Shown one piece after another: positions 41,631 through 64,000 of a stretch of 64,000 bases of DNA. This DNA is from an uncultured Gammaproteobacteria bacterium (GTDB lineage: Bacteria; Pseudomonadota; Gammaproteobacteria; JAADHQ01), in contig CAWECS010000014.1 in the NCBI GenBank assembly GCA_963807455.1, positions 91,114-155,113 of the forward strand. The letters are read 5' to 3'. The notes under the pieces were generated by a model. That model searched no databases, was not told the origin of the DNA, and saw only the letters and a program-made list of their open reading frames with translations. Numbering within the stretch: position 1 is the stretch's first letter; each line of letters opens with the position of its first letter. The translations under genes were made by a program, and so were the position numbers.

Positions 41631-41679
41631 AAAAGTTTCAGAACAGCTGGCTAAATGACAGCGTGCTGAGGGGGTCAGG

Positions 41680-45134: not shown

Positions 45135-45391
45135 GCAAGGTTATCATGGCAGACCTTAATGGCTGGCTGAAATCATATTGCTGGCAGAAAACAATCATAA
45201 TCGATGACTTAATGGCCAAGCATGAGCGTCTGTGATATTTTCACTGATATTATTTTTTAGCCACTTCAGCTATATTGGGGTAAATTCAGGCGCCATTGAA
45301 ATGAATAATAGGCCTCACACCCGCTGCTTGGACATATTAGCAGTGAACAGGGAAAGCGAGAAAATTTAAACCTCAGAGCAGGATTCTGTCT

Positions 45392-47140: not shown

Positions 47141-47476
47141 TTATTGTTGGCTGCCACTGAATTTCACAAGCCGGTTTACCTGGATATCCTGTACAAACAC
47201 CACGCCGGAATGCTCGCTATAAAACGGTGCCAGACCCTCAAGAATTGGAGCGACCAGTTGTTCGGGTACCGCCGCGATAACCATAATTAAGACGTCTTCC
47301 TCGTTGAACATCAGGTGGCCTTCATGAAAACCGTGGCTGCCCTTACCGGAAAGATTGTTGATGATGGTATAGCCTGTTACACCGGCATTATCGAGCAAAT
47401 CGGTGGCAAAGGCCTGATGCTCGCCACTGAGAATGATTTCGAGTTTTTTAACTGAGCTGAAGTTGAGGTTTTTCAT
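47141..47476 (-). CDS. PII-family protein (CPII/SbtB-like)
   Basis: KKLEII, GVTGYTIINNLSGKGSHG, GVVFVQDIQV; 4-bp overlap with the dabA stop. Confidence 0.85.
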   Translation of the reverse strand: MKNLNFSSVKKLEIILSGEHQAFATDLLDNAGVTGYTIINNLSGKGSHGFHEGHLMFNEEDVLIMVIAAVPEQLVAPILEGLAPFYSEHSGVVFVQDIQVNRLVKFSGSQQ

Positions 47477-50400
47477 GGTGTACTGGACTCCTTTGCTAAG
47501 GATGGTTCGTTTGCATCAGAAAGGGTTAATACATCCCACTGACCACTGTTGTATGTATAGACGATCTTTTTCTCAGGATCGATGACCAGTAAACGGATCC
47601 AGTCATTTAATACCAAGTTCTTGATTGCGACCACACTTTCCACGGCTCGCCTGGCATGTTCCAGGGGAGCCTCGATGACGGTAATCAGTCGCAACGGCTC
47701 ATGAAATGGAAAACCTTTATCCAGAACGGTCTGCGAGGGCAGGCCTGTACGCAGATCACTCAGTCCACCGGTCATCACGCCAAAGCGTCCGGCAACATTG
47801 TGATATACCTTGCTACCACTGCCAAAGCGCTCATTATCAACGGTAGAAAAATAGTGTTCCATATTGATCCATTGTGCAACCACCAAAGGGCCGGAAATAA
47901 TATTTTCCAGGAGTCGTTGCCTGGGATCCAGTCGGTAGTCGTAGGAATGCAGGAATGAACGACCTTCCAGTGACATGTCCTGAGTTAAATTTCGACGACC
48001 AATAATCATATAGGCATTGCGTGATAAGCCCCATTCTGGTCGTACTTGTGACCAGTCCATAGCATTGCGCTCAATTTCACGATAGGCTGCCGTCGGTTCA
48101 CGGTCATGCGGTTTCAGCTGTAAACTGGGCAGGCGTTCCTGGGCGCATAGACGTGAGGCCGCTAACAGACCCGTACGTAAGCGATCGATGTAAAAAATAT
48201 GTGTAGAAGGGATATGATCTAGGTCATATAATTTTAGCTCGTCTGTGGTGGTATTGTGCAGTGCGCCGATAAACCAGGCATCATCAGCGATACGAATACC
48301 CTGTGCACGCAATTTACGGCGTACTTCTTTCTTATTTGCCATCTGTGCCAGCACTCGTGCGCTGACAAGGCCATGATTCCCGCCGCAGGCACCGCAGTCC
48401 AGTGCCGATTCATACGGATTGTTTTCCGAGGTGCTACCATGTCCGACCAGCAGAATAAAACGCGAGAAGTCCCTGGTTAAGCCAATCGAATGTAAGGCCT
48501 GGCTGACAAAGCCAACCTGCTCATCAAGACTGAAACCAATGCGGCCCAGTCTTTCCATTTGCAGTTGGGTATAGGCTGCATCGATCCTGTAGGTATCGCG
48601 CAAGCGCAAAATGAATTCGCGTTCCTGCTGCTTGGTTAAATTCAGGGAATTGGCCAATACTGTAGATGTGTTGAAGCGTCTGCCGAGGGCAGTTTCACGT
48701 AACTCACGTACCATGTCATCACTGATGTGTTCGGCTTCCAGGTCAAAGTCTTGCTCTATGGCCATGATAATCACAGCACGTTGTACCGTTCTCAGAATAG
48801 AATCTGCTTGTTCGCGATCGAGTTTATCGATGAGCAGGTGAGTGGAACGTTTTTTTCTATATAGGCGTTTACGCCAGTGATTATAGGTTTGCGGCATCAG
48901 GGTTTTGCCTACCATATCAAACCCGAACAGCAAGCCTATGGCCTCTACCGTGACAAAAGGTCCGAATACCGATTCCTTCAATTCATGCATAGCCTTCTCA
49001 AGCGCGGTGACTGGATGCACGTCTTCGGCATCGGCAACAGTCATTTCCAGTACCAGGTTTTTTGGCGTGACAATGACTGGGGACAGGTGCATTTCACTAC
49101 CCTTGCCCAGCTCCATGAAGCTCACCGGTACACCAAAGAAGCCGGCGATACCATAGGTTTGATAATCACCGACACTTTCCAGGTGTCGACGAATGCGTTC
49201 AGAACGGGTATCTATGCAGAACAATGACTGTACAAAGGGACGTTTGTCGCGTGGTTCAGGTGGCGTTAGATTCACACCTGCCAGCAATTCTTTGATGGCT
49301 TGTGCCTCTAAGGCCCGTAACCAAAACATGCCCTCGCAGTATTCAAACATGCGCAAGCTGTGCAGTAAATCGTTAAACTGGTCTGGCGATAATGATCGCA
49401 AGTCATCTACCTGTTTGACCCGGGAGGCCAGTGTGCACAGTCTGTCTGCTTGTGTTTTGGCTTCATGCCGGCGTTTGAATTCAACATATTGATGAAAGAC
49501 TTTTTCAATTTGTGCGACGCTCCCGCGTACCAGGGTTTGTTCCACGCGTTTTGCCATGGCGGGTAGTATGCGTTTACCAAACAGCTCGTAGCGTAAAAAG
49601 GTTTCCATGGTTTTGTTTTCGATGGCGTCTTCAATCGCAGGTGCCGTTGTGGCGATATGGCGATGACCGCGTTCATTATGCCGCTCGCTGAGCAAGGCAA
49701 GCGCAAAGGTCAAACGGACTGCAACCAGATCGATCAGGTCAGCAGGATGACGTTTGCTCCAGTAATAATTCTTGGCATTCCAACGCCAGCGAACGAAACC
49801 TGACCAACCATGCAATTGCGCCAACTCACGCGTAAAGTATTGAACCCATTGCTCCTCGGGGATGCCAAGCGTTTTCATTACATGGGCAATGACACCTTCC
49901 GGCGTGTCGTCCACGGAAAGAATGTCCTGAATATGCATGCCGCGCAAATAGAGTCGGATATTTCGATTGGCCACTTCACGCCAGGCCCGGAAGAATCCGC
50001 GTTTGCGTCCTGGCATGGACCAGACTGATTGGCCTTCATCAAAAAAATCCAGGCAACTCTTGATAACAAGTTCATCGAGCTCCTTGGTTATTTCGGTACC
50101 ATATAATGCGTCTACGGCATCGTAGACAGGCCGATCACCAAGTAACTCATGACGTAGGTAGGGCACCAAACGCTCTGGCGCAAACGGTTCCTGTTGGGGC
50201 GATGCCTGGTTGTTCACCGCTTCCTGAACGTCCTTGTCAGTAGCGATGTTGTGCCTGAATACCACTTTTTGTTCAGTTTGGGTGAGCAGGGCCATTAGCC
50301 ATTGTTGCAGATCAATGCCCTTGATGGTTTCACGTTTCGCAGTATAGGCGGCGACTTGGGCGAACAGATCCTGACTATCTACCTTGCCTTGTTCGAGATA

Positions 50401-50607
50401 GCGTTGATAGATGGGCCTTTTTAAAAAGACACGACCATGAAATAAACGCTTGCCTTCTTGTACTGCTTGTTCGAAAGGCAAGTCTTCCAATCCATGTAGT
50501 GGATTATGATGTATAAAGGTGCGCATCGGCCAGAAATAGGGAATGTGTTCGCTCGCGACATAGATCATGGAGCGGATGCTGAGTCTTTGTCCGACTGATA
50601 AACTCAT
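47473..50607 (-). CDS. dabA: Inorganic carbon transporter soluble subunit DabA (DUF2309)
   Basis: WPMRTFIHHNPLHGLE, Zn-ligand motifs FCIDTRSE, GHGS, LDCGACGG; DWSQVRPEWGL, GSGSKVYHNV. Confidence 0.93.
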   Translation of the reverse strand: MSLSVGQRLSIRSMIYVASEHIPYFWPMRTFIHHNPLHGLEDLPFEQAVQEGKRLFHGRVFLKRPIYQRYLEQGKVDSQDLFAQVAAYTAKRETIKGIDLQQWLMALLTQTEQKVVFRHNIATDKDVQEAVNNQASPQQEPFAPERLVPYLRHELLGDRPVYDAVDALYGTEITKELDELVIKSCLDFFDEGQSVWSMPGRKRGFFRAWREVANRNIRLYLRGMHIQDILSVDDTPEGVIAHVMKTLGIPEEQWVQYFTRELAQLHGWSGFVRWRWNAKNYYWSKRHPADLIDLVAVRLTFALALLSERHNERGHRHIATTAPAIEDAIENKTMETFLRYELFGKRILPAMAKRVEQTLVRGSVAQIEKVFHQYVEFKRRHEAKTQADRLCTLASRVKQVDDLRSLSPDQFNDLLHSLRMFEYCEGMFWLRALEAQAIKELLAGVNLTPPEPRDKRPFVQSLFCIDTRSERIRRHLESVGDYQTYGIAGFFGVPVSFMELGKGSEMHLSPVIVTPKNLVLEMTVADAEDVHPVTALEKAMHELKESVFGPFVTVEAIGLLFGFDMVGKTLMPQTYNHWRKRLYRKKRSTHLLIDKLDREQADSILRTVQRAVIIMAIEQDFDLEAEHISDDMVRELRETALGRRFNTSTVLANSLNLTKQQEREFILRLRDTYRIDAAYTQLQMERLGRIGFSLDEQVGFVSQALHSIGLTRDFSRFILLVGHGSTSENNPYESALDCGACGGNHGLVSARVLAQMANKKEVRRKLRAQGIRIADDAWFIGALHNTTTDELKLYDLDHIPSTHIFYIDRLRTGLLAASRLCAQERLPSLQLKPHDREPTAAYREIERNAMDWSQVRPEWGLSRNAYMIIGRRNLTQDMSLEGRSFLHSYDYRLDPRQRLLENIISGPLVVAQWINMEHYFSTVDNERFGSGSKVYHNVAGRFGVMTGGLSDLRTGLPSQTVLDKGFPFHEPLRLITVIEAPLEHARRAVESVVAIKNLVLNDWIRLLVIDPEKKIVYTYNSGQWDVLTLSDANEPSLAKESSTP

Positions 50608-51365
50608 AAAATCACTCCGCTCAGATAAACACCGCCGATGGCTAAGGCGAGCAGTATCAGGGCGTAAAAACTGATAGCTACAGTACCCAGGTCGGTAATT
50701 TTGACATCACTGGCCCTGCCTACAATCAAGCCCTGAATTAAGCGGGCACCGGCCCAACTCCAGAACAGCCAGATCAGTAACAGGACCATCGCCACCATCG
50801 GCGTGGCAACAACGGTCTCGACGACCATATCGAGCATAATAAAAAAAGTGGGAAACAGCGGTGACGCGATGGCGGCTACCACGACGATCACCAGTACACC
50901 GGAAAAACGCGGAATGGTGCGTGCAAGTCCACCATATAAACCGGTATAGGCGGCACCAAAACGTTGTTCAAGGCCTGCACTGAGTAATACCAGTAAAACC
51001 AGCGGCACACTCATGCTAAGTGCATAAGCAAATAACAACATTGCCGGAGTACCTTGCATCACAGGCAGCCACAATAAGCCCCAAAAAGAAGTAGCAAGAA
51101 ATCCACTCCATTGATTGACTTCACGTAAGGTCAGAATGCGCAGGGCGTACAGGGCGGATGTGAACAGAGCCAGTGGCAATAACCAGCCAGGCCAGGCCAC
51201 ATCGCTATTGAGTATTATGAACAAGCCGATTAACGGCCAGGTGATCAGTAACAGTACCCTTAGCCAGGCCAGTTTAATGTTATCGAGAATGGCGTTGAAT
51301 ACCATGCTCATGGGAAACAGTGGCAGGAAAATACCGCTAAGCAAAATGATCAATGCATCAGGCAT
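50604..51365 (-). CDS. Polytopic membrane protein resembling part of an Mrp/Nuo antiporter subunit
   Basis: About 8 hydrophobic helices, YGGLARTIPRFS and ASPLFPTF motifs; tightly packed between dabB and dabA. Confidence 0.7.
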   Translation of the reverse strand: MPDALIILLSGIFLPLFPMSMVFNAILDNIKLAWLRVLLLITWPLIGLFIILNSDVAWPGWLLPLALFTSALYALRILTLREVNQWSGFLATSFWGLLWLPVMQGTPAMLLFAYALSMSVPLVLLVLLSAGLEQRFGAAYTGLYGGLARTIPRFSGVLVIVVVAAIASPLFPTFFIMLDMVVETVVATPMVAMVLLLIWLFWSWAGARLIQGLIVGRASDVKITDLGTVAISFYALILLALAIGGVYLSGVIL

Positions 51366-51366
51366 G

Positions 51367-53046
51367 TTATAACCACCTTAGCCAGATATTTAATTGACCG
51401 GAGATTGACAGCAGCGAGCGCGTCAAGCGGGTATAGATATCACTGATATAAAATTCCCTTGATATCAGTGCATAGAAATTTAACCACAGGCGTTGTCTCT
51501 GCTGGCGTCGTCGATAACCATTATGTTCTGCATAGTATGTTATGAGCCAACCGGCGACAATGATTAACGCAATAATGACGATCAGCACATTAAAGTACAG
51601 TAAGTCGATTGAGGCTGCCGAGTATAGTTGTACACGGAATGCCGGATCCGGATACAAAAACAGATCAAAGGCATGACTAATAACGGCGTAGCCCAGTACG
51701 ACGATGACCAGTGATAACACGCTCAAGCCCACCAGTCGCCAAATATTCTGGGTGCGCATCCGGTAAGTGGCAAAGATCAATTGCGCACCGGTTACCCAGC
51801 CAAAGAACAACAGTATAATCGCCCCCTGTTTCTGAAAATAATCCTGGGCAATAAGCAGGTGGGAAAAAATCAGGATCGCCAGCGGCACGGCCAGGGTAAT
51901 GGCCGCCATGAGTATCCAGGGTTGGCGTTCCTTATTCGGGCGTTTTTCCACCGCAAAGGTATAGAGTTCATCTTTGGGAATACCGTCGTCCTTACGCGCA
52001 TTATTGATGACACTACCCGAGGACAGGAACATGGTGCCTTTGAAAACACCGTGTGCAAACAAATGATAAATGGCTAATGAGAATGCCCCGATCCCGCATT
52101 CCATGATCATGAAGCCCATTTGTCCCATTGTGGAATAACCGAGCGCCTTTTTGATATCGTTTTGGGTCAACATCAGCATGGAACCAAAGACAGCGGTAAT
52201 CAGACCCACAATGAAAATGACGTTCAAAACGTCGCCACTGTGAACAAATACCGGCGCAAAACGATTGATTAAAAATCCACCGGCATTAACGATTCCGGCA
52301 TGCATCAAGGCTGAAACCGGAGTCGGTCCATCCATGGTATAAGGTAACCAGGTATGCAATAGAAACTGGGCTGAACGTGCAAAAGCAGCAAGCCCGATGA
52401 GAGCAGCGACTACTTCCGTTAACGGTAAACCCATAAATTCATGGGCGTATGGGTTGGCCATAATCTCGTTAAAGATAATAGTCAAAGACCAGGTATCATA
52501 GGCACCATAGAGTAGGGCGGCAGCCAGGATTAAAGGTATATCACCAATTCGATACGTGATCAGGGTCCAGAAGGCAAAGCGGTACGCGGTTTGACTACGC
52601 GTGTCCTGGCCCAGCAGGAAATATAGAAACACCCCGACCAGATACCAGGCGATAATCAGTGTGATCAGGTCACCCGCGATAACCATGAATAACAAGGCCG
52701 CCGTCATCAAATCGAGCAATACAAAAAATTGGCCGTAGGCGGCTTCTTCGGCCATATAGCGTATCGAATACAAATGTACGATTAAGCTAATGCCAAGGAT
52801 AATGGTCGCCAGTAAAGAACTCAGGGGGTCAAATAACAGGATGGTGCTAGTGTTACCTATCTGTATCGCCTGTGGACCGTTACCCCCTAGTGCCCAGGAC
52901 AGGAGTAAGCCGGAAACAAGAAAACTGATAATGGTAGCCGCCACACTGATGCGTGCAATGCCACGACCGAAGCGTCCGGCAAATAACTGAATCAATAACG
53001 CGGAAATTAGCGGCAGAACCGCAACAACAATGATGAACTGCTCCAT
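51367..53046 (-). CDS. dabB: Inorganic carbon transporter membrane subunit DabB (NuoL/MrpA-like)
   Basis: RSAQFLLHTWLPYTMDGPTPVSALMHAGIVNAGG, DIKKALGYSTMGQMGFM, HLFAHGVFK; upstream of DUF2309. Confidence 0.92.
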   Translation of the reverse strand: MEQFIIVVAVLPLISALLIQLFAGRFGRGIARISVAATIISFLVSGLLLSWALGGNGPQAIQIGNTSTILLFDPLSSLLATIILGISLIVHLYSIRYMAEEAAYGQFFVLLDLMTAALLFMVIAGDLITLIIAWYLVGVFLYFLLGQDTRSQTAYRFAFWTLITYRIGDIPLILAAALLYGAYDTWSLTIIFNEIMANPYAHEFMGLPLTEVVAALIGLAAFARSAQFLLHTWLPYTMDGPTPVSALMHAGIVNAGGFLINRFAPVFVHSGDVLNVIFIVGLITAVFGSMLMLTQNDIKKALGYSTMGQMGFMIMECGIGAFSLAIYHLFAHGVFKGTMFLSSGSVINNARKDDGIPKDELYTFAVEKRPNKERQPWILMAAITLAVPLAILIFSHLLIAQDYFQKQGAIILLFFGWVTGAQLIFATYRMRTQNIWRLVGLSVLSLVIVVLGYAVISHAFDLFLYPDPAFRVQLYSAASIDLLYFNVLIVIIALIIVAGWLITYYAEHNGYRRRQQRQRLWLNFYALISREFYISDIYTRLTRSLLSISGQLNIWLRWL

Positions 53047-53427: not shown

Positions 53428-53748
53428 TTAAAGCTCGTCACGTGTGCAGGCTTCAGGATCCCAGCCTTTGCTTTTGGCGTACGCGATGGCGTCGTCATAG
53501 ATTTTTTTGTGTCGTTCACGCAGCTCATCAGGTAGTGCACTAACCATACAGCCATATTTATCCCATTCATTATTGACCTGTTGGTGTATGGCTTCAATAC
53601 GAGATATTTCCCATTCTGTACAGGTCTCTGATTCAGGTAAAATGCCAAATACCCAGGCATCACGAATTATTTTACCGATCATCGTCATACTGCCATTGAT
53701 ATCATTGTCTAGTCCGGCGTATGTTTTAGGCGTACTGGGTCGCTTCAT
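53428..53748 (-). CDS. Hypothetical protein
   Basis: 106-aa ORF with AAGGA RBS and protein-like composition (GKIIRDAWVFG, LPDELRERH, GWDP). Confidence 0.7.
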   Translation of the reverse strand: MKRPSTPKTYAGLDNDINGSMTMIGKIIRDAWVFGILPESETCTEWEISRIEAIHQQVNNEWDKYGCMVSALPDELRERHKKIYDDAIAYAKSKGWDPEACTRDEL

Positions 53749-53948: not shown

Positions 53949-55313
53949 CTAGTCGGCATCTATCCCCAGCTTCTTGAGTTTTCGCCATAATGATACACGG
54001 TCGATGCCGAGAGTTTTGGCGGCCTGTGTTCGGTTGCCGTCGGCTATTTTCAAGGCATTCAGGATATGCTCCATCTCCTGCTCCTTGAGCGTCGTCGGGG
54101 TGGCTGCCATTTCTGGCTTGAATACGCGCACACTGATCGAGCTCAGATTTTGTGGTAAATGTTCGATATCCAGGGTCTTTCCATGGGTCAGGGCGACACC
54201 CCGCTCAATGAAATTCGACAGTTCGCGTATATTACCGGGATAGTCATAGTCGACCAGTCGCTGCATGGCTTCAGTGCTTATTTCGTGCAAGTCGCGCTCC
54301 ATCATTGTCGAAAACTTGCGTAGGAAATAGTAAGCCAGCAGTGGTATATCGTCGCGTCGCTCGCGCAAGGCGGGAAGGGTCAGTGTGACGACATTGAGGC
54401 GGAAGTAGAGGTCGTTACGCATCTGACCTTCATCAACGGCAGTCTTGAGGTCTCGATTGCTGGCTGCGATAACACGTACATCGATATCAATGGGTTGGTT
54501 CGAGCCGACCCGCATCAGTTCGCGTTCCTGCAGCACACGTAGCAATTTGACCTGCATCAGCAGGGGCATTTCGGCGACTTCGTCCAAAAATATGGTGCCA
54601 TTTTGCGCAGCTTCGAACAGACCGATCTTGGTGGCACTTGCCCCGGTGAATGAGCCTTTCTCGTGGCCAAATAGTTCACTGGCAGCGATCTCTTCGTGCA
54701 ATGCGCCACAGTTGAAGGCCACGAAGGGGTCTTCTGCACGTTGACTGTGTTGGTGGATGTATCTGGCCAGGAGTTCCTTGCCGGTGCCGGATTCGCCATG
54801 GATGACAATACTGGTGGCGGTAGCTGCGATCTGGCGGGCGGTTTCAAGTAAGCGTTGCATGCCCAGGTCTTGTGTAATGATCGAGGCGACACTTGAAATA
54901 TCCTCGATACGCTGTTTTAACTGTCTGTTCTCGCGTTTGATGCTGCGCAGGTCCAATGCAGAGCGCACGACTTCACGTGCTTCGTCGAGTCGGAACGGCT
55001 TGGCGATATAGTGAAAGGCCCCGGCTTTCATGGCATTAACGGCGGAATCGAGAGAGGCATGCCCCGTGATCATAATGACCGGGACATCGGGTGTGGATTC
55101 GCGGATATGGCGCAATACATCCATGCCGTCGATGCCAGGCATCTTCAAATCAGTCAGAACGAGGTCGAATTCAGTAGTCTGCATTTCGGTGAGAGCGCTT
55201 TTTCCATCCCTGCACGCGGTCACGTCGTAACCCTCACGCTCAAGGACATGACTGAGGTTTGACAGGGCGATAGTCTCGTCGTCAATCAGCAGGATGTGTG
55301 GTTTATCACTCAT
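53949..55313 (-). CDS. Sigma54-dependent response regulator (NtrC family)
   Basis: Receiver DLKMP, GESGTGKE, GSFTGA, FLDEV, PGNIREL, HTH LGIDRVSLWRK. Confidence 0.95.
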   Translation of the reverse strand: MSDKPHILLIDDETIALSNLSHVLEREGYDVTACRDGKSALTEMQTTEFDLVLTDLKMPGIDGMDVLRHIRESTPDVPVIMITGHASLDSAVNAMKAGAFHYIAKPFRLDEAREVVRSALDLRSIKRENRQLKQRIEDISSVASIITQDLGMQRLLETARQIAATATSIVIHGESGTGKELLARYIHQHSQRAEDPFVAFNCGALHEEIAASELFGHEKGSFTGASATKIGLFEAAQNGTIFLDEVAEMPLLMQVKLLRVLQERELMRVGSNQPIDIDVRVIAASNRDLKTAVDEGQMRNDLYFRLNVVTLTLPALRERRDDIPLLAYYFLRKFSTMMERDLHEISTEAMQRLVDYDYPGNIRELSNFIERGVALTHGKTLDIEHLPQNLSSISVRVFKPEMAATPTTLKEQEMEHILNALKIADGNRTQAAKTLGIDRVSLWRKLKKLGIDAD

Positions 55314-56788
55314 GATGGCTCCAGTTCACTGTTGGATGCCCGTTCGAGCGGCAGCCAGATGGAGAATCGTACTCCGCCTTCGGGACGATTTTCGACGGCG
55401 ATACAACCCCGGTGTTCGTTGATAATCTCTTCGACCAGGTACAAGCCTAGTCCAGTGCCTTCACCACTGGATTGGGTGGTGAAAAAGGGGTCGAATATCT
55501 TTGGCATGTCTTCTGGCGAAATACCTGGTCCATCGTCATCGATATACATCAACATGACATGCTTGAACTGGCCAATGCCGGTGGTATCACCTGCCAGGTT
55601 GTTGCTATTAACAGGTTTGGATTCCTCCCAGGTGGTTTCCTGGCCGATAATCCAGATGTTCTTGGCGCCTGCGTGCGTCGCATTTTTAATGAGATTAATG
55701 AAGACTTGTTGCATACGTTCGCGATCCACCAGCAACATCCCGTCAGCGACATCCTCAATGTGAAGCAACACATCCTGCGGAAGCTGGCGATGAATCAGCA
55801 GTGTCGCTCCCTGAACCAGCCTGGCGGCACCCAATAATTGCATTTGTTGTGTCGGCAAGCGCACGGTGTCGAGCAGGCGTTTAACGATGCGGCGAGCCCG
55901 CTCAGTCTCACCATCGATATGGGCTAACCACTGCTTGCGTAAATCTTCTCGCGTGTTGCCGTCGTCTTCCATGAGTAATTGCACCGAGGTGGAGATGTTA
56001 GACAGCGGGTTGTTCAATTCATGAGCGACACCTGATACCAGCACACCGAGTGCGGCGGCGCGTTCATGGCGGCGCAGCTGGGTCTGCTGTTCACGCAGTT
56101 GTTCCAGCATGGAATTGAAGTGAAACACAAAGGACTCAATCTCCTTATCGTCCGAAGGCAGTACCAGTGTCTGTGCATTGCCCTCGGCGAGTTGGTCGAG
56201 CTGCTTTTCAAGTTGTGTCAGGGGCCGAACGACCCGGCGTACCATATACATGGCGCTGATAAGGCCGATAAGAATGACGGTGAAAGAAGCAAATATCAAT
56301 GTTTGTGCCGCGACTGCCGTGGTTTTAGTGAGAATGCCTCGTTGGCTCTGGGCGACGCCCTGGATCAGTTCTGAAAGCTGGTGCCCGGTCTTGCGGATCG
56401 CTGCCTGTTTGGCAGCGCGCGCATCCGGTGCAAGACCGGCGTATTCGTCAATTTGTATGTTGTAGGTGGTCAATCCCTGCTCCAGCTGTTGCAATTTAGC
56501 CGGACCGGCGATGGCGGCGAACACACGTTCTCCTTTGGCCAGCGCCTCTCGCGCCACACTGAGCTGCTGTTGCAGTTGTTGCAGATCGTCGGGGTCGTGA
56601 TACAGGAACAGGTTTTTTTCGTCACGGCGTATTTTCTGGCTGGCCACATAGAGGTCGTCGACGGCTTCACCTTCGACAATATGGGTTTTCAGGTAATGCA
56701 GGTCAGCGATGACGACAGCGACAAAAATCAGCAGAGCACCTTTGGAGAGTCCATAGGAGGTGAGAATCTTGCTGCGCAGACTGGTCAT
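55310..56788 (-). CDS. Membrane sensor histidine kinase (periplasmic helical domain, HAMP)
   Basis: TM-periplasmic-TM-HAMP, GVAHELNNP, QVFINLIKNA, DDGPG, GTGLGL; likely start MTSLRSK at 56788. Confidence 0.92.
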   Translation of the reverse strand: MTSLRSKILTSYGLSKGALLIFVAVVIADLHYLKTHIVEGEAVDDLYVASQKIRRDEKNLFLYHDPDDLQQLQQQLSVAREALAKGERVFAAIAGPAKLQQLEQGLTTYNIQIDEYAGLAPDARAAKQAAIRKTGHQLSELIQGVAQSQRGILTKTTAVAAQTLIFASFTVILIGLISAMYMVRRVVRPLTQLEKQLDQLAEGNAQTLVLPSDDKEIESFVFHFNSMLEQLREQQTQLRRHERAAALGVLVSGVAHELNNPLSNISTSVQLLMEDDGNTREDLRKQWLAHIDGETERARRIVKRLLDTVRLPTQQMQLLGAARLVQGATLLIHRQLPQDVLLHIEDVADGMLLVDRERMQQVFINLIKNATHAGAKNIWIIGQETTWEESKPVNSNNLAGDTTGIGQFKHVMLMYIDDDGPGISPEDMPKIFDPFFTTQSSGEGTGLGLYLVEEIINEHRGCIAVENRPEGGVRFSIWLPLERASNSELEPS

Positions 56789-56819
56789 GTGTATCGTGCA
56801 TCTCTCGCCTGGATTGAGT

Positions 56820-56888
56820 TGTTGCATATTACAACACCGTTACAGGCAATACCAACTCATGAGGGATGATATGTTTCAATATGTAACA
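56820..56888. promoter_or_regulatory. Paired upstream activator sites (TGT-N11-ACA)
   Basis: TGTTGCATATTACAACA at 56820-56836 and TGTTTCAATATGTAACA at 56872-56888. Confidence 0.65.
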
Positions 56889-56939
56889 CTCATTTAAAGG
56901 AATTTTTTATAGACGGTTGTTTTATATATAAATTTAATT

Positions 56940-56956
56940 TTGGCATGTTCTGTGCA
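56940..56956 (+). promoter_or_regulatory. Sigma54 -24/-12 promoter
   Basis: TTGGCATGTTCTGTGCA with GG-N10-GC spacing, about 40 bp before ATG 56995. Confidence 0.7.
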
Positions 56957-56994
56957 ACAACATACTCAAATTTAAATTGGATCTGGAGTGAGTA

Positions 56995-57591
56995 ATGAAA
57001 AAATTAACGGGCGCTATAAAGCAGATGTTAGATGCCCTGGCATTTGAACATGCCGGTGAACACATGAGTATGAAGGATAAAACGCAGATCCTGGCCCAGT
57101 CGTCGAATTCAGTCAATGAAGCCGCACTCAAAGAGCTGCAACCCTCCCTGTCTCGTTCCGGCAGCAGTTCACGTCGAGTGGCACTCTATATGGGTAGCGA
57201 GCTGCCACCTGAAGTGATGGGTTATGTGATAGAGACCTGTTCACGTCTGAAACACCAACTCACTGTCTTGAGCTTTCAGTCCGAGTACATTACCCGGGAA
57301 TTGCTCAGCGAATATCAACACACGCTTGAGGAGACTGGGGTCGAAATGGAGGTGGTCGCCCTGAGCGGTGATCCTGTGTCTGGTTTGGGCCGCTATTTGC
57401 GTAAACACCCGGAAATCGCATTTCTTACCTGCAGGGATACCGGTTATTTGGGGCGCAGATGCCTAAAAGGCAAGTATCCCCAGAATGCTTTTCCCGTGCC
57501 TGTGGTGGTGGTTACAACGGTTGCAGAGGATGCTGGCGTCCAGAGCGAAGCGGCTTCCACGGATGATAGCGGGGAAGTAGTCGTCGCATAA
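56995..57591 (+). CDS. Hypothetical protein, possibly degenerate USP-like fold
   Basis: GGAG RBS; RRVAL beta start, alpha/beta pattern, C-terminal FPVPVVVV strand. Confidence 0.65.
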   Translation: MKKLTGAIKQMLDALAFEHAGEHMSMKDKTQILAQSSNSVNEAALKELQPSLSRSGSSSRRVALYMGSELPPEVMGYVIETCSRLKHQLTVLSFQSEYITRELLSEYQHTLEETGVEMEVVALSGDPVSGLGRYLRKHPEIAFLTCRDTGYLGRRCLKGKYPQNAFPVPVVVVTTVAEDAGVQSEAASTDDSGEVVVA

Positions 57592-57689
57592 AGCAGAAAG
57601 TGGTATACTGTCGTGCTCATGTTTGCCCGGAGAGTTCCGGTGTAGCATGAGCATTCTGCTTTCTGTCGTCATTAAAATGTGGTTATTGC

Positions 57690-59756
57690 GTGTTAAAAAA
57701 ATTTTTTCCTTTCCTTAGATGGTTTCCCTTTACAGGTGAAAGTCTTCGAGCAGACTTAATTGCGGGTATTACAATCGCAATGATTCTGGTGCCACAGAGT
57801 ATGGCTTATGCATCTTTGGCGGGCCTGCCCGTCGTGTACGGCCTGTACGCTTCCTTTTTGCCAGTCATTGTTGCTTCCATGTGGGGTGCTTCGCGTTTTT
57901 TGCATACCGGCCCAGTCGCCATGTTGTCACTGATGTCGGCAGCGGCGATAGAGCCTCTTGCTCGTCGTGGTACAGATGAGTTTATCCAGCTTTCCCTGTT
58001 ATTGGCATTGCTGGTAGGTGTGCTGCGCCTGGCGCTGGGTCTATTCCGTATGGGTGTGTTGATTAATCTCGCTTCCCATCCGGTTATCCTCGGTTTTACC
58101 AATGCGGCTGCACTCATTATCGGTTTGTCCTTGCTGAACAGTTTTCTGGGTGTTCCCATGCCAAGGTCAGACATTTTTCTCGCTGATCTGTTGCAAGTAG
58201 TTCAGCAGCTGGCCACTGTACATGGCCCAACGCTGGTGTTTGGTCTGTGTGCCCTGGTGGCCTTGTACTGGTTGCGTGCGCGATTTCCAAAATGGCCTGG
58301 TGTATTGATTGTTGTCATCCTGGGGATACTGATTAGCGCCGTTACTCAATTCGAAAAGATTCAGGTGGTTGAGCCGCAGCAAATTGCCGATGTGGCGGTG
58401 CGTTCCAAATTTGAATCACTGAAGACGGATCAGGCAAAGCTGAAGCGTATAAAGGAAAAACAGAAAAGCATCAGGGATCAGTTGCAGAATCTGGACCAGG
58501 AAGACAAACGGACCTATGTCATGCAGGCCGATTTGTTGCGTCTCAAGGGTGAAGAGAGCAGCGTGAAGCACAGTCTGTACAATAAACAAGTCGAGACCCA
58601 TGAGGTCGCCCTGGTGCCCGAGGTACAGAGCGACGGACAGGTGCTTTATCAGCTTGCCAAGCAAACCGGTCCATTTACCACCGTGTGGCGCTGGTCCGGT
58701 TATACCGAAAACAAGTTCAGTCTCTCAGGTGGTGGCGCAGTGGTGGGCAGTATACCCAGTGGCTTGCCGGGCTTCAGTGTGCCCACCATGGATCTTGGCA
58801 TTATTTCTGACCTGTTTGCGGTGGCTTTCATTATGGCGATGATCGGTTTCATGGAGGCCACTTCAATTTCACGTGCCCTGGCTGCCAAGACCCGTGAAAA
58901 ACTTGATCCTAATCAGGAATTGATAGGACAGGGTCTGGCCAATATTGTCGGTAGTTTCTTCCAGTCTTACGTGGTGAGTGGTTCGTTTTCACGATCTGCC
59001 GTCGCCGCCCGTGTTGGCGCGAGGACCGGCTTCTACGCCGTTGTGAGTGCACTGGGCGTATTGCTGGTGATGCTGTTTCTGACGGAATATCTTTATCATC
59101 TGCCAAAGGCAGTACTGGCCGCCATTGTGATGAGTGCTGTCTTCGGTCTGATCGACTATAAATCAATGGTGCATGCATGGAAGGTACGCCGCAACGACGG
59201 CATCGTCGGCTTGATCACTTTTATTACCACGCTGGTCATGGCGCCAGCACTCGCAGACGGGGTTTTGGTGGGCGTGGCATTTACGATCCTGCTGTTCCTC
59301 GCAAGCACCATGAAGCCACGCAGCGAAGTACTGGGTCGCATGGCAAATGGCTCTCTGGCTGGCGCGGCCACACATGATCTGGCGCCTATCAGTGAAAATT
59401 ATGTCGTGATGCGCTTCGATGCCTCACTGGTCTTTATAAACGCAACCCATTTCGAGTATGCTATTTTAAAGTCATTGAATGAATTCCCTGATGCCCAGGC
59501 GATCCTGGTCATTGGTCAGGGCATCAACGATGTCGATGCAACAGGTGAGGAAAAACTACGTGCACTTACCCAGGATCTTAAGTCGGCCGGTGTTACCCTG
59601 ATGCTTGCGGGTCTCAAGCGACCGGTCCGCGAGGCATTGGAGAGAGCTCACCTGCAAGAGGTGATCGGTGAGGAGAATATTATTGCTAACAAGGAAACCG
59701 CGTTGAAGATAATGGAAGAACGATATTCCAAAGGGAAAGTGGAGCACGCGGCCTAG
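57690..59756 (+). CDS. SulP/SLC26 anion transporter with STAS domain
   Basis: DLIAGITIAMILVPQSMAYASLAGLP, TGPVA, DPNQELIGQG, SFSRSAV, STAS RFDASLVF...DVDATG. Confidence 0.93.
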   Translation: MLKKFFPFLRWFPFTGESLRADLIAGITIAMILVPQSMAYASLAGLPVVYGLYASFLPVIVASMWGASRFLHTGPVAMLSLMSAAAIEPLARRGTDEFIQLSLLLALLVGVLRLALGLFRMGVLINLASHPVILGFTNAAALIIGLSLLNSFLGVPMPRSDIFLADLLQVVQQLATVHGPTLVFGLCALVALYWLRARFPKWPGVLIVVILGILISAVTQFEKIQVVEPQQIADVAVRSKFESLKTDQAKLKRIKEKQKSIRDQLQNLDQEDKRTYVMQADLLRLKGEESSVKHSLYNKQVETHEVALVPEVQSDGQVLYQLAKQTGPFTTVWRWSGYTENKFSLSGGGAVVGSIPSGLPGFSVPTMDLGIISDLFAVAFIMAMIGFMEATSISRALAAKTREKLDPNQELIGQGLANIVGSFFQSYVVSGSFSRSAVAARVGARTGFYAVVSALGVLLVMLFLTEYLYHLPKAVLAAIVMSAVFGLIDYKSMVHAWKVRRNDGIVGLITFITTLVMAPALADGVLVGVAFTILLFLASTMKPRSEVLGRMANGSLAGAATHDLAPISENYVVMRFDASLVFINATHFEYAILKSLNEFPDAQAILVIGQGINDVDATGEEKLRALTQDLKSAGVTLMLAGLKRPVREALERAHLQEVIGEENIIANKETALKIMEERYSKGKVEHAA

Positions 59757-60042: not shown

Positions 60043-60657
60043 ATGGTAAAACTCAGGACTTATGTCTACATCGATTCAATGCAGCCTCAATTAGCGGAAT
60101 ATATGGCTTCCGTTTCGCAGGGGTTCCCACCAGTGCCGGGTGATGCCTGCCTGTGGGTTGAAGTTTCGCCTGGTATGGCCGTTCACCGCGTGACCGACAT
60201 CGCTTTAAAGGCTTCACAAGTCAAGCTGACACAGCAGGTTGTAGAACGTGCATTCGGGTCAATGGTCGTCCATCATCGTACTCAAAGTGACGTGATTGAA
60301 GCGGGTAATACACTATTGACCAGTATCGGCGCTAGCGTGAGTGACCGGGAGCATTGTGAAATCGAGTGGCAGGAAATCATTCATGGCATGACCGCTGATC
60401 ATGCGGTTTTGATAAACCGCCAGCATCGTGGAGGTTCTATGATGTTACCCGGTGAGAGTATGTTTATCCTGGAAACCCAGCCGGCCGGATATATCGTTTA
60501 TGCCGCTAATCAGGCAGAAAAAGCAGCCAATATTACCCTTGTTGATGTACGCGCCGTTGGTGCCTATGGTCGATTAACCCTGACAGGTCGCGAAGCGGAT
60601 GTCGAAGAAGCCGCCGCCGCCGCGCTGGCTGCTATTGAAAATCCCGCCTGGACATAA
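60043..60657 (+). CDS. csoS1D: Tandem-BMC carboxysome shell protein CsoS1D
   Basis: [67 protein letters not shown]. Confidence 0.9.
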
Positions 60658-60659
60658 GC

Positions 60660-61232
60660 ATGCATCGCCAGGAATTACTTACATTATTACGCCAACATCA
60701 AACGCGATTTATGGAAGAGGCGGGTTATATTTGTCGTGCAATCCGTTTTGTGGAAGCCCATGGCGACTGTTTTTATCGCGAGCTCTGGCCGGCCCATGTC
60801 ACGGGATCTGCCTGGGTAGTCAGTCCTGATCGCAGTCGGGTGTTGATGATGCACCATAAAAAGCATGACCAGTGGTTTCAACCCGGCGGTCACGCAGATG
60901 GTGATAACGATATTTTACGTGTAGCGCTGCGCGAAACCTCGGAAGAAACGGGTATCGATATTTCGCAGGTCAAGTTACTGGGTTCGGCTGTTTTTGATGT
61001 AGACATTCATTCGATACCGGCCATGGCGGGTGATCCACGGCATGAACACGTTGATATCCGTTTTCTGGTCGAGATAGATGATCGTCTGCCCATACCTGGC
61101 AATGATGAATCCCATGAGGTGCTGTGGATTAGCTTGAACCAGGTATCGCGTTACAACAACAATCGTTCGAGCTATCGGATGGTAGAGAAGACCCGTCAAA
61201 TGCGTAACAGTATGATTGCTATGCAGTTTTAA
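60660..61232 (+). CDS. NUDIX hydrolase
   Basis: HVTGSAWV, Nudix box GGHADGDNDILRVALRETSEETG, DVDIH; 2 bp after csoS1D. Confidence 0.9.
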   Translation: MHRQELLTLLRQHQTRFMEEAGYICRAIRFVEAHGDCFYRELWPAHVTGSAWVVSPDRSRVLMMHHKKHDQWFQPGGHADGDNDILRVALRETSEETGIDISQVKLLGSAVFDVDIHSIPAMAGDPRHEHVDIRFLVEIDDRLPIPGNDESHEVLWISLNQVSRYNNNRSSYRMVEKTRQMRNSMIAMQF

Positions 61233-61591
61233 GCTTGCTAATTTTTTTTTACGAGCATGGCTGGAGAGATGGACTAGTTGTTGATTTTGTGTTGGAATGT
61301 GCGCTTGATTTAGAGGGCAGTTTTTTATTCTGCCGGAATGCATAACACGGGTTCATTCGAGTGTTAATGCAAAGAACGAATTCTTCGCCATTCAGAATTT
61401 AGCGATTTAACTTTGAGTAGCTTCCAGGTTTGGATTCGCGTACTCAAAGACAGAATTAGGAGTCAAGCCGGATCAGCTATTTTGATTCATTTGGAATATT
61501 TTCAAGTGTCATCGAACAAAGCGGGTTGCCGGTCAGGCCTTAATAGGGTTTCCGCATACTTATTAATATGCTGAAGCATTATTATTTAGAC

Positions 61592-61611
61592 ATATAGATA
61601 ATAAACTATAT
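61592..61611. promoter_or_regulatory. Candidate LysR/CbbR-type operator upstream of cbbL
   Basis: ATATAG-N8-CTATAT inverted repeat in an AT-rich region about 115 bp before cbbL. Confidence 0.5.
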
Positions 61612-61726
61612 ATTTTAAAGAAAATATCAATTTGAACATTTATAGGTTTAGGCCTATGATTCAGTAAGTTTTTAATAAGTGATTGCATACTAATCAACTG
61701 AATACACAACGAAACAGGAGACGAAT

Positions 61727-63139
61727 ATGGCTTCAAAATCCTATCAAGCGGGTGTGAAGGAATACCGTGAAAAATACTGGACACCGGATTATGTGCCCCT
61801 AGATACTGACCTTTTGGCCTGTTTCAAGGTCACTGGGCAGCCTGATGTACCTCGTGAAGAGGTTGCTGCTGCGGTAGCTGCTGAAAGCTCAACGGGTACC
61901 TGGAGTACCGTTTGGTCAGAATTGTTAACAGACCTTGAGTTTTATAAAGGTCGTGCCTATCGCATCGAAGAAGTACCAGGCGACCCTGAGGCATTTTATG
62001 CGTTCGTAGCTTATCCAATTGACCTGTTTGAAGAAGGTTCAGTCGTTAACGTCCTGACTTCACTGGTAGGTAACGTATTTGGATTCAAGGCTCTCAAGCA
62101 CTTGCGTCTGGAAGACATCCGTTTCCCAATCGCCTATATCAAGACTTGTGGTGGACCACCAGCGGGTATCCAGGTCGAGCGTGATCGCCTGAACAAATAT
62201 GGCCGTCCAATGTTGGGTGCAACCATCAAGCCAAAACTGGGCCTGTCTGCTAAAAACTACGGCCGTGCGGTATACGAATGTTTGCGTGGTGGTCTTGATC
62301 TGACCAAAGACGACGAGAATGTTAACTCTCAGCCGTTCATGCGCTGGCGTGATCGTTTCGAGTTTGTTGCTGAAGCGATTGATAAAGCACAACGTGAAAC
62401 AGGTGAGCGTAAAGGTCATTACCTGAACGTAACGGCTTCTACACCTGAAGAAATGTACAAGCGTGCTGAATTTGCAAAAGAAGTAGGCTGTCCCATCATC
62501 ATGCATGATTTCTTGACGGGTGGTTTTACAGCGAATACAGGTCTGGCGAACTGGTGTCGTGAGAACGGTATGTTGTTGCACATTCACCGTGCTATGCATG
62601 CGGTTATCGACCGTCATCCAAAACATGGTATCCACTTCCGCGTTTTAGCCAAGTGCTTGCGTTTGTCAGGTGGTGACCATCTGCATACCGGTACTGTTGT
62701 TGGTAAACTTGAGGGTGACCGTAACTCGACATTAGGTTTTGTTGATCAATTACGTGAATCTTTCGTACCAGAAGATCGTGCACGTGGCGTGTTCTTCGAC
62801 CAGGACTGGGGCTCAATGCCTGGCGTATTCGCCGTAGCGTCCGGTGGTATTCACGTATGGCACATGCCAGCACTGGTGACTATCTTCGGTGATGACTCAG
62901 TACTGCAGTTCGGTGGTGGTACGCAGGGACATCCATGGGGTAACGCAGCGGGTGCTGCTGCTAACCGTGTTGCTCTTGAAGCCAGTGTTAAGGCACGTAA
63001 TGAAGGTCGCGTAATTGAGAAAGAGGCTCGCGACATTCTTACTGAAGCTGCACGCACTAGCCCTGAGTTGGCTATCGCAATGGAGACCTGGAAAGAAATC
63101 GTCTTCGAATTCGAAACTGTCGATAAGTTGGACGTGTAA
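61727..63139 (+). CDS. cbbL: Form IA (carboxysomal) RuBisCO large subunit
   Basis: [47 protein letters not shown]. Confidence 0.98.
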
Positions 63140-63194
63140 TCACACGTCCTTCGGACACAATTGATAACGATTTAAACATTATGAGGACTTTATA

Positions 63195-63536
63195 ATGGCA
63201 CTTACGAAAGATATGGGTAACTTTCAAACTACCCAAACACTCGAAACCTTCTCTTTCCTACCTAAGATGGATGCGAGCGATATTCAGGCGCAGATTGCTT
63301 ACATAATTGCAAATGGTTGGTCGCCTGCGATCGAACATGAGCATCCAAGCAATTCTTTCGACCATTACTGGACGATGTGGAAGCTGCCGTTTTTTGGTGA
63401 AACTGACATAACTAATGTACTGGACGAGCTGGAAGCTTGTCACCGTGCTTTCCCTGATCATCACGTTCGACTGACAGGCTATGACAGCTACACCCAATCA
63501 CAAGGTTCTGCTTTCGTGGTTTTTGAAGGACGTTAA
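63195..63536 (+). CDS. cbbS: RuBisCO small subunit
   Basis: ETFSFLP, YWTMWKLPFF, HHVRLTGYDSYTQSQG. Confidence 0.97.
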   Translation: MALTKDMGNFQTTQTLETFSFLPKMDASDIQAQIAYIIANGWSPAIEHEHPSNSFDHYWTMWKLPFFGETDITNVLDELEACHRAFPDHHVRLTGYDSYTQSQGSAFVVFEGR

Positions 63537-63547
63537 TAAACGACGGA

Positions 63548-63590
63548 TGTACTGTTGTCACCCACCGTTTGGTGGGTGCTAGTACAACAG
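63548..63590 (+). other. Intercistronic stem-loop between cbbS and csoS2
   Basis: CACCCACC-GTTT-GGTGGGTG core with flanking CTGTTGT/ACAACAG; no U-tract. Confidence 0.55.
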
Positions 63591-63627
63591 CAGTGTTTGC
63601 AACAATTATGACGCAATGGGGTTAACG

Positions 63628-64000
63628 ATGGCACAACCAGCGACCACACAGAGCACACGTGAGCTAGTAAAAGCAAGGCGCCAAGCTATGTCTACGGCTG
63701 GCAAGGCGGCGCTACAGTCTAATACAGTTCAGCGAACGGCACCGGCAAGAGTGGCGGCATCAACGCCTGCTGCGCGGGTGAATTCTTATGCTGCGCCAAA
63801 AAGCACAGAGACAAGTGTAGCGCGCGCCGCTTCAATAGCGCGCCGCGAAGCGATGTCTAAAAGCGGTAAATCGGGCGCGCAAAGTAAGGATCGTACGCGA
63901 AACGCTAGTGCAGTAGTTCAACAGGCTAGTAGCACTGCTGCAGCTTCTGCGGTAGCGACTTCAACGACGGCTGAACCTAAGAAAGGCTGTGGTTGTGGTT
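63628..64000 (+). CDS. csoS2: Carboxysome assembly protein CsoS2 (3' truncated by window edge)
   Basis: Manual translation MAQPATTQSTRELVKARRQAMSTAGK...RAASIARREAMSKSGK...KKGCGCG shows two N-peptide R-x5-RR-x3-S-x2-GK repeats; directly after cbbS; absent from the ORF track because it lacks a stop. Confidence 0.88.
   Translation, partial: MAQPATTQSTRELVKARRQAMSTAGKAALQSNTVQRTAPARVAASTPAARVNSYAAPKSTETSVARAASIARREAMSKSGKSGAQSKDRTRNASAVVQQASSTAAASAVATSTTAEPKKGCGCG

Follow-up and report, generated by a model that had tools for sequence, protein, structure and literature searches.

A sensor kinase gene and an NtrC-type regulator gene lie between dab and carboxysome genes in this genome, divergent from the genes for a USP-fold protein and a SulP transporter. 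The locus raises the question of what this two-component system controls, and whether it serves inorganic carbon, a sulfur oxyanion or another anion. We analyzed the window, a stretch of 64,000 nucleotides that contains the locus, together with homologous loci from other genomes.

Gene arrangement and the divergent spacer

Pfam domains and gene coordinates agreed with a preliminary description of this DNA, in which a kinase and an NtrC-type regulator are divergent from a hypothetical gene and sulP. The position between DAB and carboxysome genes was also borne out, with DabA/DabB-type genes upstream and CsoS1D-like, Nudix, RbcL and RbcS genes downstream. The four genes form a unit, hereafter the module, that is conserved in sulfur-oxidizing, CO2-fixing bacteria. 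The features are summarized in Table 1. The 106-aa companion ORF showed no Pfam or NCBIfam match, and the 198-aa ORF no Pfam match. The single RNA run identified contained 6% of the words; its contigs are mostly of other strains and thus uninformative about expression.

Table 1 Features of the module and its surroundings (positions in the window).
Feature	Position	Strand	Remarks
dabB, accessory membrane gene, dabA, PII-like gene	47141..53046	-	context
106-aa protein of no assigned family, module companion	53428..53748	-	found in 33/106 loci
NtrC/AtoC-type sigma54 activator	53949..55313	-	receiver Asp55, sigma54-activator domain, Fis-type HTH (Pfam and motifs)
Sensor histidine kinase, 492 aa	55310..56788	-	TM1, periplasmic four-helix bundle, TM2, HAMP, HisKA (His256), HATPase
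Predicted activator site 1, TGTTGCATATTACAACA	56820..56836		identical to family consensus
Conserved half-site	56838..56844		18 bp after site 1; family consensus TGTTACA (92 aligned sites)
Predicted activator site 2, TGTTTCAATATGTAACA	56872..56888		conserved in homologous spacers
AT-rich tract with IHF-like element	56889..56939		70% AT versus 43% for loci
Predicted sigma54 -24/-12 promoter, TTGGCATGTTCTGTGCA	56940..56956	+	kept in 105/108 spacers
USP-fold protein, 198 aa	56995..57591	+	N-terminal helical extension is conserved; lacks the canonical ATP motif
SulP/SLC26 transporter with STAS domain	57690..59756	+	SULTR-like pocket; membrane-domain insert of roughly 115 residues
csoS1D-like (tandem-BMC), Nudix, cbbL, cbbS, csoS2 start	60043..64000	+	context

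The kinase most likely starts at 56788, and not at 56827 as given by the ORF caller, because Met1 at 56788 is shared by 90% or more of 77 homologues. The divergent spacer is therefore 206 bp long, as originally proposed. Its GC content is 34%, compared with about 46% for the contig. The elements previously read in it were all recovered, namely two TGT-N11-ACA palindromes 52 bp apart, the AT-rich tract and a GG-N10-GC promoter (GG at 56942-43, GC at 56954-55), and transcription of USP-sulP is predicted to start near 56967. An IHF-like element near 56910-56922 matches seven of nine positions of the IHF consensus; at least eight of the nine were matched in 73 of 105 homologues, a raw count without shuffle control. 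Site 1 may possibly also be autoregulatory for the kinase, because the kinase starts 32 bp from it. One more perfect TGT-N11-ACA, located at 56946 and overlapping the promoter, is probably due to chance, as its recurrence is limited to two near-identical loci of the same species.

Phylogenetic footprinting was performed with 105 distinct homologous spacers drawn from gamma- and betaproteobacterial lineages. Both palindromes, the AT-rich tract and the -24/-12 promoter stood at fixed spacings in 104 of them, and the same arrangement occurred in 1 of 2,100 shuffled spacers. By itself, TGT-N11-ACA is frequent, with 766 occurrences in 3.42 Mb; the two strands together have 18 close pairs, and a sigma54 consensus follows only the pair described here. 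Among 43 site matches in the genome, this is the sole site-plus-promoter pair, with a partner score of 19.0 (next best, 9.0). The predicted regulon is USP-sulP alone, without dab or carboxysome genes, because no other promoter in the genome has both elements. Footprinting of the sites and promoter before USP-sulP and the uniqueness of the pair genome-wide strongly support the self-contained sigma54 circuit suggested earlier. Judged from sequence, we have high confidence in this architecture, that is, in the genes, domains, sites and their conservation.

Sensor kinase, activator and USP-fold protein

The kinase has the composition of a periplasmic-sensing kinase: hydrophobic segments at about residues 8-38 and 156-187 form the two membrane helices that flank an extracytoplasmic domain, followed by HAMP, HisKA with its His, and HATPase. 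The sensor domain, about 125 residues between the membrane helices, is a single periplasmic four-helix bundle with a conserved RRxEKNLFLY. HBM/four-helix-bundle sensors such as McpS, NarQ and Adeh_2942 likewise place a periplasmic helical bundle between two membrane helices. However, the HBM sensor domain consists of two stacked four-helix modules of about 250 aa, whereas the sensor here is one module, and Pfam HBM matches were weak and partial, in 35 of 77 kinase homologues. Queried with the sensor alignment, the sequences of solved structures yielded no match below E 0.01, and a Foldseek search with the sensor yielded none at E 0.001. On plasmids, no full-length close relative of the kinase was found (best 27%).

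The activator carries Walker A (GESGTGKE), Walker B and an Arg finger besides the receiver, AAA+ and Fis HTH domains of NtrC-family enhancer-binding proteins, and its median identity across 89 homologous matches is 81%. Its loop reads GSFTGA, a detail absent from the preliminary description, and GAFTGA in 84 of the 86 homologues read; GSFTGA is listed as an activation-competent variant (PMC4641369). Since rpoN was found in this genome, the predicted upstream palindromes, the -24/-12 promoter and the sigma factor are all present for NtrC-type control.

The label "USP-like" was confirmed by fold and not by sequence. Residues 56-174 of the AlphaFold model superposed on UspA 3s3t (Z 11.3, rmsd 3.8 Å, 112 residues aligned), with a Foldseek E of 1e-4, and the best 14 structural matches were all USP domains, indicating a UspA alpha/beta fold in the model. 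ATP-binding USPs carry the motif G-2X-G-9X-G(S/T). Neither this motif nor a Pfam Usp match was detected in any of 61 homologues. A predicted complex between the USP-fold protein and full-length SulP scored 0.16, against a mark of 0.32. A weak USP-like match in another genome (G022; E 8.5e-7, one stop) was dropped, as neither kinase nor SulP adjoins it.

Transporter identity and genomic neighbourhood

SulP is nearest to the sulfate transporter AtSULTR4;1 (E 3e-84), its best solved relative (PDB 7LHV), and far from BicA (5e-25). Its pocket residues Q36, Y40, E389, S434 and R435, invariant in 39 homologues, equal all five site residues (Q112/Y116/E347/S392/R393) of the plant SULTR H+/sulfate symporters (PMC8298490); unlike these, SulP is bacterial and carries the insert. 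In a FastTree phylogeny it was separate from BicA, from which it also differs in site motifs, and lay on a different branch from E. coli DauA. The family models agreed, with 129 bits against a cut-off of 880 for BicA (NCBIfam NF050096) and 188 bits against 614 for DauA (NF008660). The same genome also carries a BicA-like SulP elsewhere.

Carboxysome-adjacent SulP bicarbonate transporters of Thiomicrospira and cyanobacterial BicA belong to the same family, and a location next to carboxysome or DAB genes in sulfur-oxidizing autotrophs is a further similarity; the available parts of PMC12628692 and PMC10880623 do not mention a dedicated sigma54 sensor for them, and SulP here is not BicA by score or site residues. 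In PMC10880623, SulP clade C, the clade of the characterized Hydrogenovibrio/Thiomicrospira transporters, is described as bicarbonate-transporting and carboxysome-linked; the supplement assigns the characterized sulfate transporters to clade A and recognizes bicarbonate carriers in clades C and D only. In Thiomicrospira pelophila, a carboxysome-adjacent SulP rescues carbonic-anhydrase-less E. coli, and the carboxysome-linked sulP was not induced under DIC limitation, according to the available text of PMC12628692.

We then compared the flanks of homologous loci. Of 28 loci with 5 kb or more on each side, 24 have CCM/Calvin markers in their flanks, as do 28 of 35 when the limit is 3 kb, versus 64 of 2,913 20-kb windows (2%) of this genome. 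The locus counts overstate independence because the loci are kin. Within the close family, the module is thus usually at CCM loci, on which the earlier carbon reading had been made to depend. In 11 of 40 loci, rbcL lies on the same contig, 4.6-41 kb off. The gene after sulP, read at 58 loci, was csoS1D-like in 14, a CbbR-like LysR gene in 4 and dabB in 2 (3-bp gap). Across all copies, sulP runs straight into dabB-dabA in two separate lineages. A BicA-like SulP gene follows sulP by 61 bp at one locus (L014; 836 bits, cut-off 880), and a sister SulP without the kinase occurs inside 5 carboxysome operons.

Related systems and proposed role

The closest known system is DVU3303-DVU3305 of Desulfovibrio vulgaris with its target operon DVU3302-3298, a sigma54 two-component system that shows induction under high pH and influences chlorate tolerance; orthologues with the conserved site are reported in Thioalkalivibrio and Dechloromonas (PMC3333781, PMC4641369, PMC10102598). 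Both systems have two YGTTGCA-N3-TGCAACR-type palindromes in a divergent spacer, from which the sites in the window differ at 1 and 2 positions, a promoter about 56 bp upstream of the first target gene, and a USP and an anion transporter among the targets. However, the DVU3303-3305 transporter is TSUP/TauE and not SulP (TauE appears here only in distant copies), a Lon-domain third component is present there whereas the gene maps here contain RR-HK-USP-SulP only, and the Desulfovibrio system has no CCM link. In HTH strings compared by eye, the LGIDRVSLWRK helix, invariant here, is absent from the published DVU3305 DNA-binding domain and is closely matched by that of DVU3334 (Kdp regulator, related site GTTACATTTTGTAAC). 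The earlier statement that no sigma54 control of this kind is described held for CCM genes in the literature searched, but not for a USP and an anion transporter. We conclude that the module is a variant within a known type of sigma54 switch for anion transporters, and that it is repeatedly placed at inorganic-carbon loci. The taxa named among 30 distant kinases were Chromatiaceae, Pelomicrobium, Thiohalomonadaceae, Thiotrichales and Ca. Parabeggiatoa; Desulfovibrio was absent from these few names.

The first reading stood as regards the circuit, and its carbon role stays a proposal, as SulP is SULTR-like and not BicA and nearly every host is both a sulfur oxidizer and an autotroph. From the sequence comparisons, we put at about even the chance that the switch and the USP-sulP operon act as an auxiliary bicarbonate supply, by symport or sulfate exchange, beside the DAB pump and the carboxysome. 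The four-helix bundle would bind a small anion from outside the cell, or register a pH-linked change in it, at the conserved Arg-Arg-x-Glu-Lys patch, and the kinase would phosphorylate the activator. The activator would oligomerize on the two palindromes, IHF-type bending would bring it to sigma54 polymerase, and USP-sulP would be transcribed from about 56967. With the SULTR proton-coupling glutamate, SulP may import HCO3- with H+ or in exchange for cell-made sulfate. If the transporter helps bicarbonate supply, as is likely on this proposal, the sensor would be a candidate outside-the-cell detector of carbon or an anion.

The module bears on inorganic-carbon sensing in chemolithoautotrophs and on their choice between several transporters; the available text of PMC12628692 counts only three well-characterized proteobacterial CCMs and leaves differential transporter regulation unexplained. 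Its transporter clade recurs in carboxysome and DAB operons. The parts open to direct tests are the 125-residue sensor, whose candidate ligand residues are invariant, the near-invariant operator, the one predicted target promoter and this transporter clade. If carbon is the signal, the module would represent an extracytoplasmic sigma54-based layer of CCM control and a usable biosensor part.

Alternatively, SulP may export sulfate or another sulfur oxyanion and clear the rDsr/Sox end product, the kinase sensing a sulfur oxyanion and the CCM adjacency reflecting clustered, growth-rate-linked autotrophy genes. We regard this as possible but on balance doubtful. It agrees with the SULTR-type pocket, but such residues do not predict anion selectivity (PMC8298490). 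Hosts carry dsrA (39/42) as often as RbcL (38/42), so that sulfur oxidation is as consistent as autotrophy. In a sample of 400 genomes, SoxB and RbcL were both present in 15 of 16 kinase hosts and the kinase in only 1 of 39 RbcL-only genomes, yet also in 0 of 38 SoxB-only genomes. (One of 17 kinase matches in the sample, in G442, E 5.5e-13 in an 861-aa frame, was dropped because no sigma54 activator adjoins.) Sulfur genes, searched with proteins of the dsr and sox regions of this genome, flank 2 of 126 loci, in contrast to the carbon genes at 24 of 28 well-covered loci, and sulP abuts dabB in two lineages. On 5 contigs with both rbcL and dsrA, rbcL was nearer in every case. Distant copies speak partly for sulfur. 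Seven gammaproteobacterial ones (L159-L164, L166) are found apart from CCM markers, opposite SulP, SLC13-type or TauE genes, and DsrE-like neighbours occur. In another class of the phylum, copies with the same sites and a kinase 30-34% identical have TauE in 4 of 10 loci fetched and APS kinase in one; they face sulP-dabB-dabA in 4 of the 10, all four of one genus. If sulfate is the signal, the module would point to a sulfate exit route with its regulator in rDsr sulfur oxidizers.

The proposal of an auxiliary bicarbonate supply can be extended: the kinase would be a periplasmic bicarbonate sensor, the first membrane receptor for external inorganic carbon in chemolithoautotrophs, and SulP a sulfate/bicarbonate exchanger that couples the exit of the sulfur end product with the uptake of carbon for carboxysomes and DAB, with the same promoter driving dabBA or bicA in some lineages. 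We consider this extension unlikely.

Rather unlikely, too, is a general pH/anion-stress switch like DVU3303-3305, or an McpS-like organic-acid sensor, with SulP moving chloride, chlorate-like oxyanions or dicarboxylates. DVU3305 sites are one mismatch from site 1 in 79 of 97 cases, the Desulfovibrio system responds to high pH and affects chlorate tolerance as noted, and Mrp, NhaA and NhaR-like genes are present in some module flanks, but why the module recurs with carboxysome, DAB and BicA-like genes is left unexplained. The best structural match of the sensor model was the malate-binding McpS domain (Z 15.1), level with designed bundles, but a common helical-bundle fold tells nothing about the ligand, and SulP is not DauA-like.

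A role of the system as master regulator of the entire CCM, with both the dab and the carboxysome operons, is highly improbable: the module sits between these operons and read-through is possible, because the csoS1D-like gene follows sulP on the same strand in 11 of 58 loci, but no activator site or sigma54 promoter was found in front of the dab genes, the csoS1D-like gene or cbbL in the window, no second site-plus-promoter pair exists in the genome, a CbbR-like LysR gene lies behind a carboxysome operon (L131:7577-8620), and the regulators that emerged from CCM screens in H. neapolitanus were of the LysR and Crp/Fnr types (10.1101/476713).

In Thioalkalivibrio thiocyanoxidans, a sigma54 activator "six genes upstream of RuBisCO" is reported (PMC5744179); it is not this module, as four annotated genes in between code for a peroxidase, a dimethylallyltransferase, a TetR regulator and an RND transporter. 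CbbR (LysR) and Crp/Fnr (10.1101/476713) are likewise encoded next to CCM operons, but these are cytoplasmic one-component regulators, whereas the module pairs a sensor in the membrane with sigma54 and has only one predicted target promoter.

Layout of the locus and its proteins

The gene order agreed with the proposed placement of the module between DAB and carboxysome genes. The source genome (3.42 Mb) encodes form I RubisCO, CsoS2, DsrA, SoxB and RpoN. The kinase start conserved across homologues gives a spacer of 206 bp, and the positions given in the preliminary description hold for the two palindromes, for the AT-rich tract and for the GG-N10-GC promoter.

Positions of the features (in the window unless a locus or the source genome, G000, is named)
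Feature	Position	Strand	Remark
PEP-CTERM-type sugar transferase, kinase, sigma54 regulator and ATPase cluster	40227-46369		ordinary; names presumed from gene order
DAB operon	47141-53046		one side of module
PII-like gene	47141-47476	minus	after dabA
253-aa membrane protein gene	50604-51365	minus	family-less; flanked by dabB and dabA
106-aa protein gene	53428-53748	minus	family-less
sigma54 activator, kinase		minus	between DAB operon and carboxysome genes
Kinase start	56788	minus	
Site 1	56820		TGT-N11-ACA
Site 2	56872		TGT-N11-ACA
198-aa ORF, SulP		plus	between DAB operon and carboxysome genes
Carboxysome genes	from 60043		other side of module
Additional SulP genes	G000:C4:62445-64118; C10:218778-220580; C16:77545-79275		three genes
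Repeated spacer and USP-fold gene	L094:9816-11700		tandem
Second SulP and 382-aa protein gene	L034:13918-17291		divergent
Module with Sua5/TsaC gene	L025:10666-20525		
NhaR-like, NhaA and Mrp genes	L019:5226-6131		near module

Every catalytic motif is present in the activator. Its loop reads GSFTGA, a form that few homologues share and that PMC4641369 gives as competent. Modelling of the kinase sensor domain gave a single four-helix bundle (pLDDT 83) similar to those of McpS and NarQ, among others; in the homologue alignment E57 and K58 never vary and R54 rarely does. This modelled fold alone cannot identify the ligand. The "USP-like" label was borne out by structure comparison, in which the model of the 198-aa protein matched USP domains; the protein lacks the ATP motif. 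Its N-terminal extension is conserved and, at locus L162, kept as a short ORF where the USP domain was undetected. SulP passes TIGR00815 and scored below the BicA and DauA family cut-offs in the profile search; a FastTree phylogeny of 59 proteins placed its clade apart from BicA-like and DauA-like proteins. The nearest solved structure is AtSULTR4;1, a plant H+/sulfate symporter, all five site residues of which are kept.

Activator sites, sigma54 promoter and predicted regulon

Loci (at least 43 from genomes and 80 from metagenomes) were retrieved with an alignment built from 61 of 106 homologues of the 198-aa protein. For 117 of these, 300 bp or more of upstream sequence was available, and 108 of the regions differ from one another, that of the window included. 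Among these listed loci, a strict sigma54 promoter lies 45-85 bp before the USP-fold gene in 105 regions, and recognizable variants occur in the remaining three. A site matrix seeded from loci other than the window found at least one activator site in 104 of 105 spacers and a pair in 64; relative to the promoter, the sites cluster near positions -122 or -112 and near -70 or -80. As the matrix was trained on the same loci, the controls are this clustering and shuffled sequences (1 of 2,100 segments scored). The same matrix found sites and promoter in all eight more distant gammaproteobacterial spacers present on fetched DNA, and at least one site in 10/10 loci of another class. This comparative evidence makes the predicted circuit nearly certain. 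At L094 the spacer with both sites is repeated in tandem with the USP-fold gene; the activator there likewise has GSFTGA.

Genome-wide, 43 positions of the source genome scored at least 11, and only the two spacer sites had a strong promoter partner, which points to a predicted regulon of a single promoter, that of USP-fold gene-sulP.

The closest known system is DVU3303-3305 of Desulfovibrio vulgaris, which controls an operon with genes for a TSUP transporter and a USP (PMC3333781, PMC4641369, PMC10102598). High pH is reported to induce this system, which is also reported to affect chlorate tolerance and to have a conserved site in Thioalkalivibrio; compared with its published sites, site 1 showed a one-base difference in 79 of 97 homologues. 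In the published HTH strings, the activator HTH looks closer to that of DVU3334 than to that of the DVU3303-3305 regulator. Judged by sequence, the module is a variant of this known sigma54 anion-transporter switch. The earlier remark that no such sigma54 control had been described held in part: literature searches outside which most subscription papers lay, some of them directed at regulation of SulP or CCM genes by sigma54 or a two-component system, listed no description of the module, but DVU3303-3305 is a similar switch.

Role of the SulP operon

CCM or Calvin markers occur at 24 of the 28 distinct listed loci whose flanks each reach at least 5 kb, at 28/35 when 3 kb is required, and at 45/106 overall, many on short contigs. 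The background was 2.2% of 20-kb windows of the source genome, so the module position favours a carbon role. Placement varies by lineage: the module can precede csoS1D-cbbL or follow the carboxysome operon, and elsewhere its neighbour is cbbQO, DAB or a weak theta-type carbonic anhydrase match. At L015 sulP is 3 bp from dabB (L086 is similar), and at L014 a BicA-like SulP gene lies 61 bp from the module sulP. In four genomes of one genus of another class, the module faces sulP-dabB-dabA; RubisCO was undetected in these four. In the sulfur-oxidizing autotrophs behind the listed loci, the module is kept beside inorganic-carbon genes.

The suggested neighbourhood survey thus supported CCM linkage for the close family but not for seven distant gammaproteobacterial copies, which face SulP, SLC13-type or TauE transporters. 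These unlinked copies, the TauE, Usp and APS kinase flanks of other distant copies, and a separate BicA-like SulP in the source genome count against the carbon role. A sister SulP lies without the kinase inside five carboxysome operons, chosen for rbcL proximity; many other clade members are far from rbcL. The carboxysome-adjacent SulP of Thiomicrospira pelophila is reported to transport DIC, but DIC limitation did not induce it (PMC12628692).

Of the roles considered, bicarbonate supply has the best support, with an about even chance of being correct. Sulfate export by SulP ranks second and is less likely. Sulfur genes were found in 2/126 loci, under labels read from sequence. Among the 42 genomes behind the listed loci (incomplete MAGs; L016 excluded as the same genome as L014), 38 encode RbcL, 39 DsrA and 31 CsoS2. 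A 400-genome class sample comprised 112 genomes with RbcL and SoxB, 39 with RbcL only, 38 with SoxB only and 211 with neither; the 16 kinase hosts, related and hence not independent, were distributed 15, 1, 0 and 0 (one weak match dropped, one genome unscored). As RbcL and DsrA are both near-general, host gene content leaves carbon versus sulfur undecided. A general pH or anion stress switch ranks third and is improbable. That the two-component system is a master CCM regulator is very unlikely, since neither an activator site nor a sigma54 promoter was found in front of dab, csoS1D or cbbL in the window, and the source genome has no second pair of site and promoter.

Further SulP genes and travelling neighbours

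The three additional SulPs of the source genome are one BicA-like protein, one close paralogue without the insert and one with a PTTA-type site. At L034 a second, insert-bearing SulP gene is divergent from a 382-aa protein gene, an arrangement similar in 13 loci and adjoining DabB/DabA or a third SulP; the 382-aa protein weakly matches LCIB/theta carbonic anhydrase (25.6 bits, cut-off 25). The 106-aa protein, with conserved W-x-FGILPE-x-C and WDKYG motifs, is present in 33/106 module loci and had no match in 14 fetched carboxysome or SulP regions without the module. Its gene is last in a sulP-protease-like-h106 operon in Thiobacillus-type loci.

NhaR-like LysR, NhaA and Mrp antiporter genes near module copies (L019, L007, L056, L160) hint at pH or Na+ homeostasis. 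A gene for Sua5/TsaC, an enzyme that uses CO2/bicarbonate, is in or adjoins the module at 12/106 loci, including L025, where a hydrogenase-4-like membrane complex is encoded after sulP.
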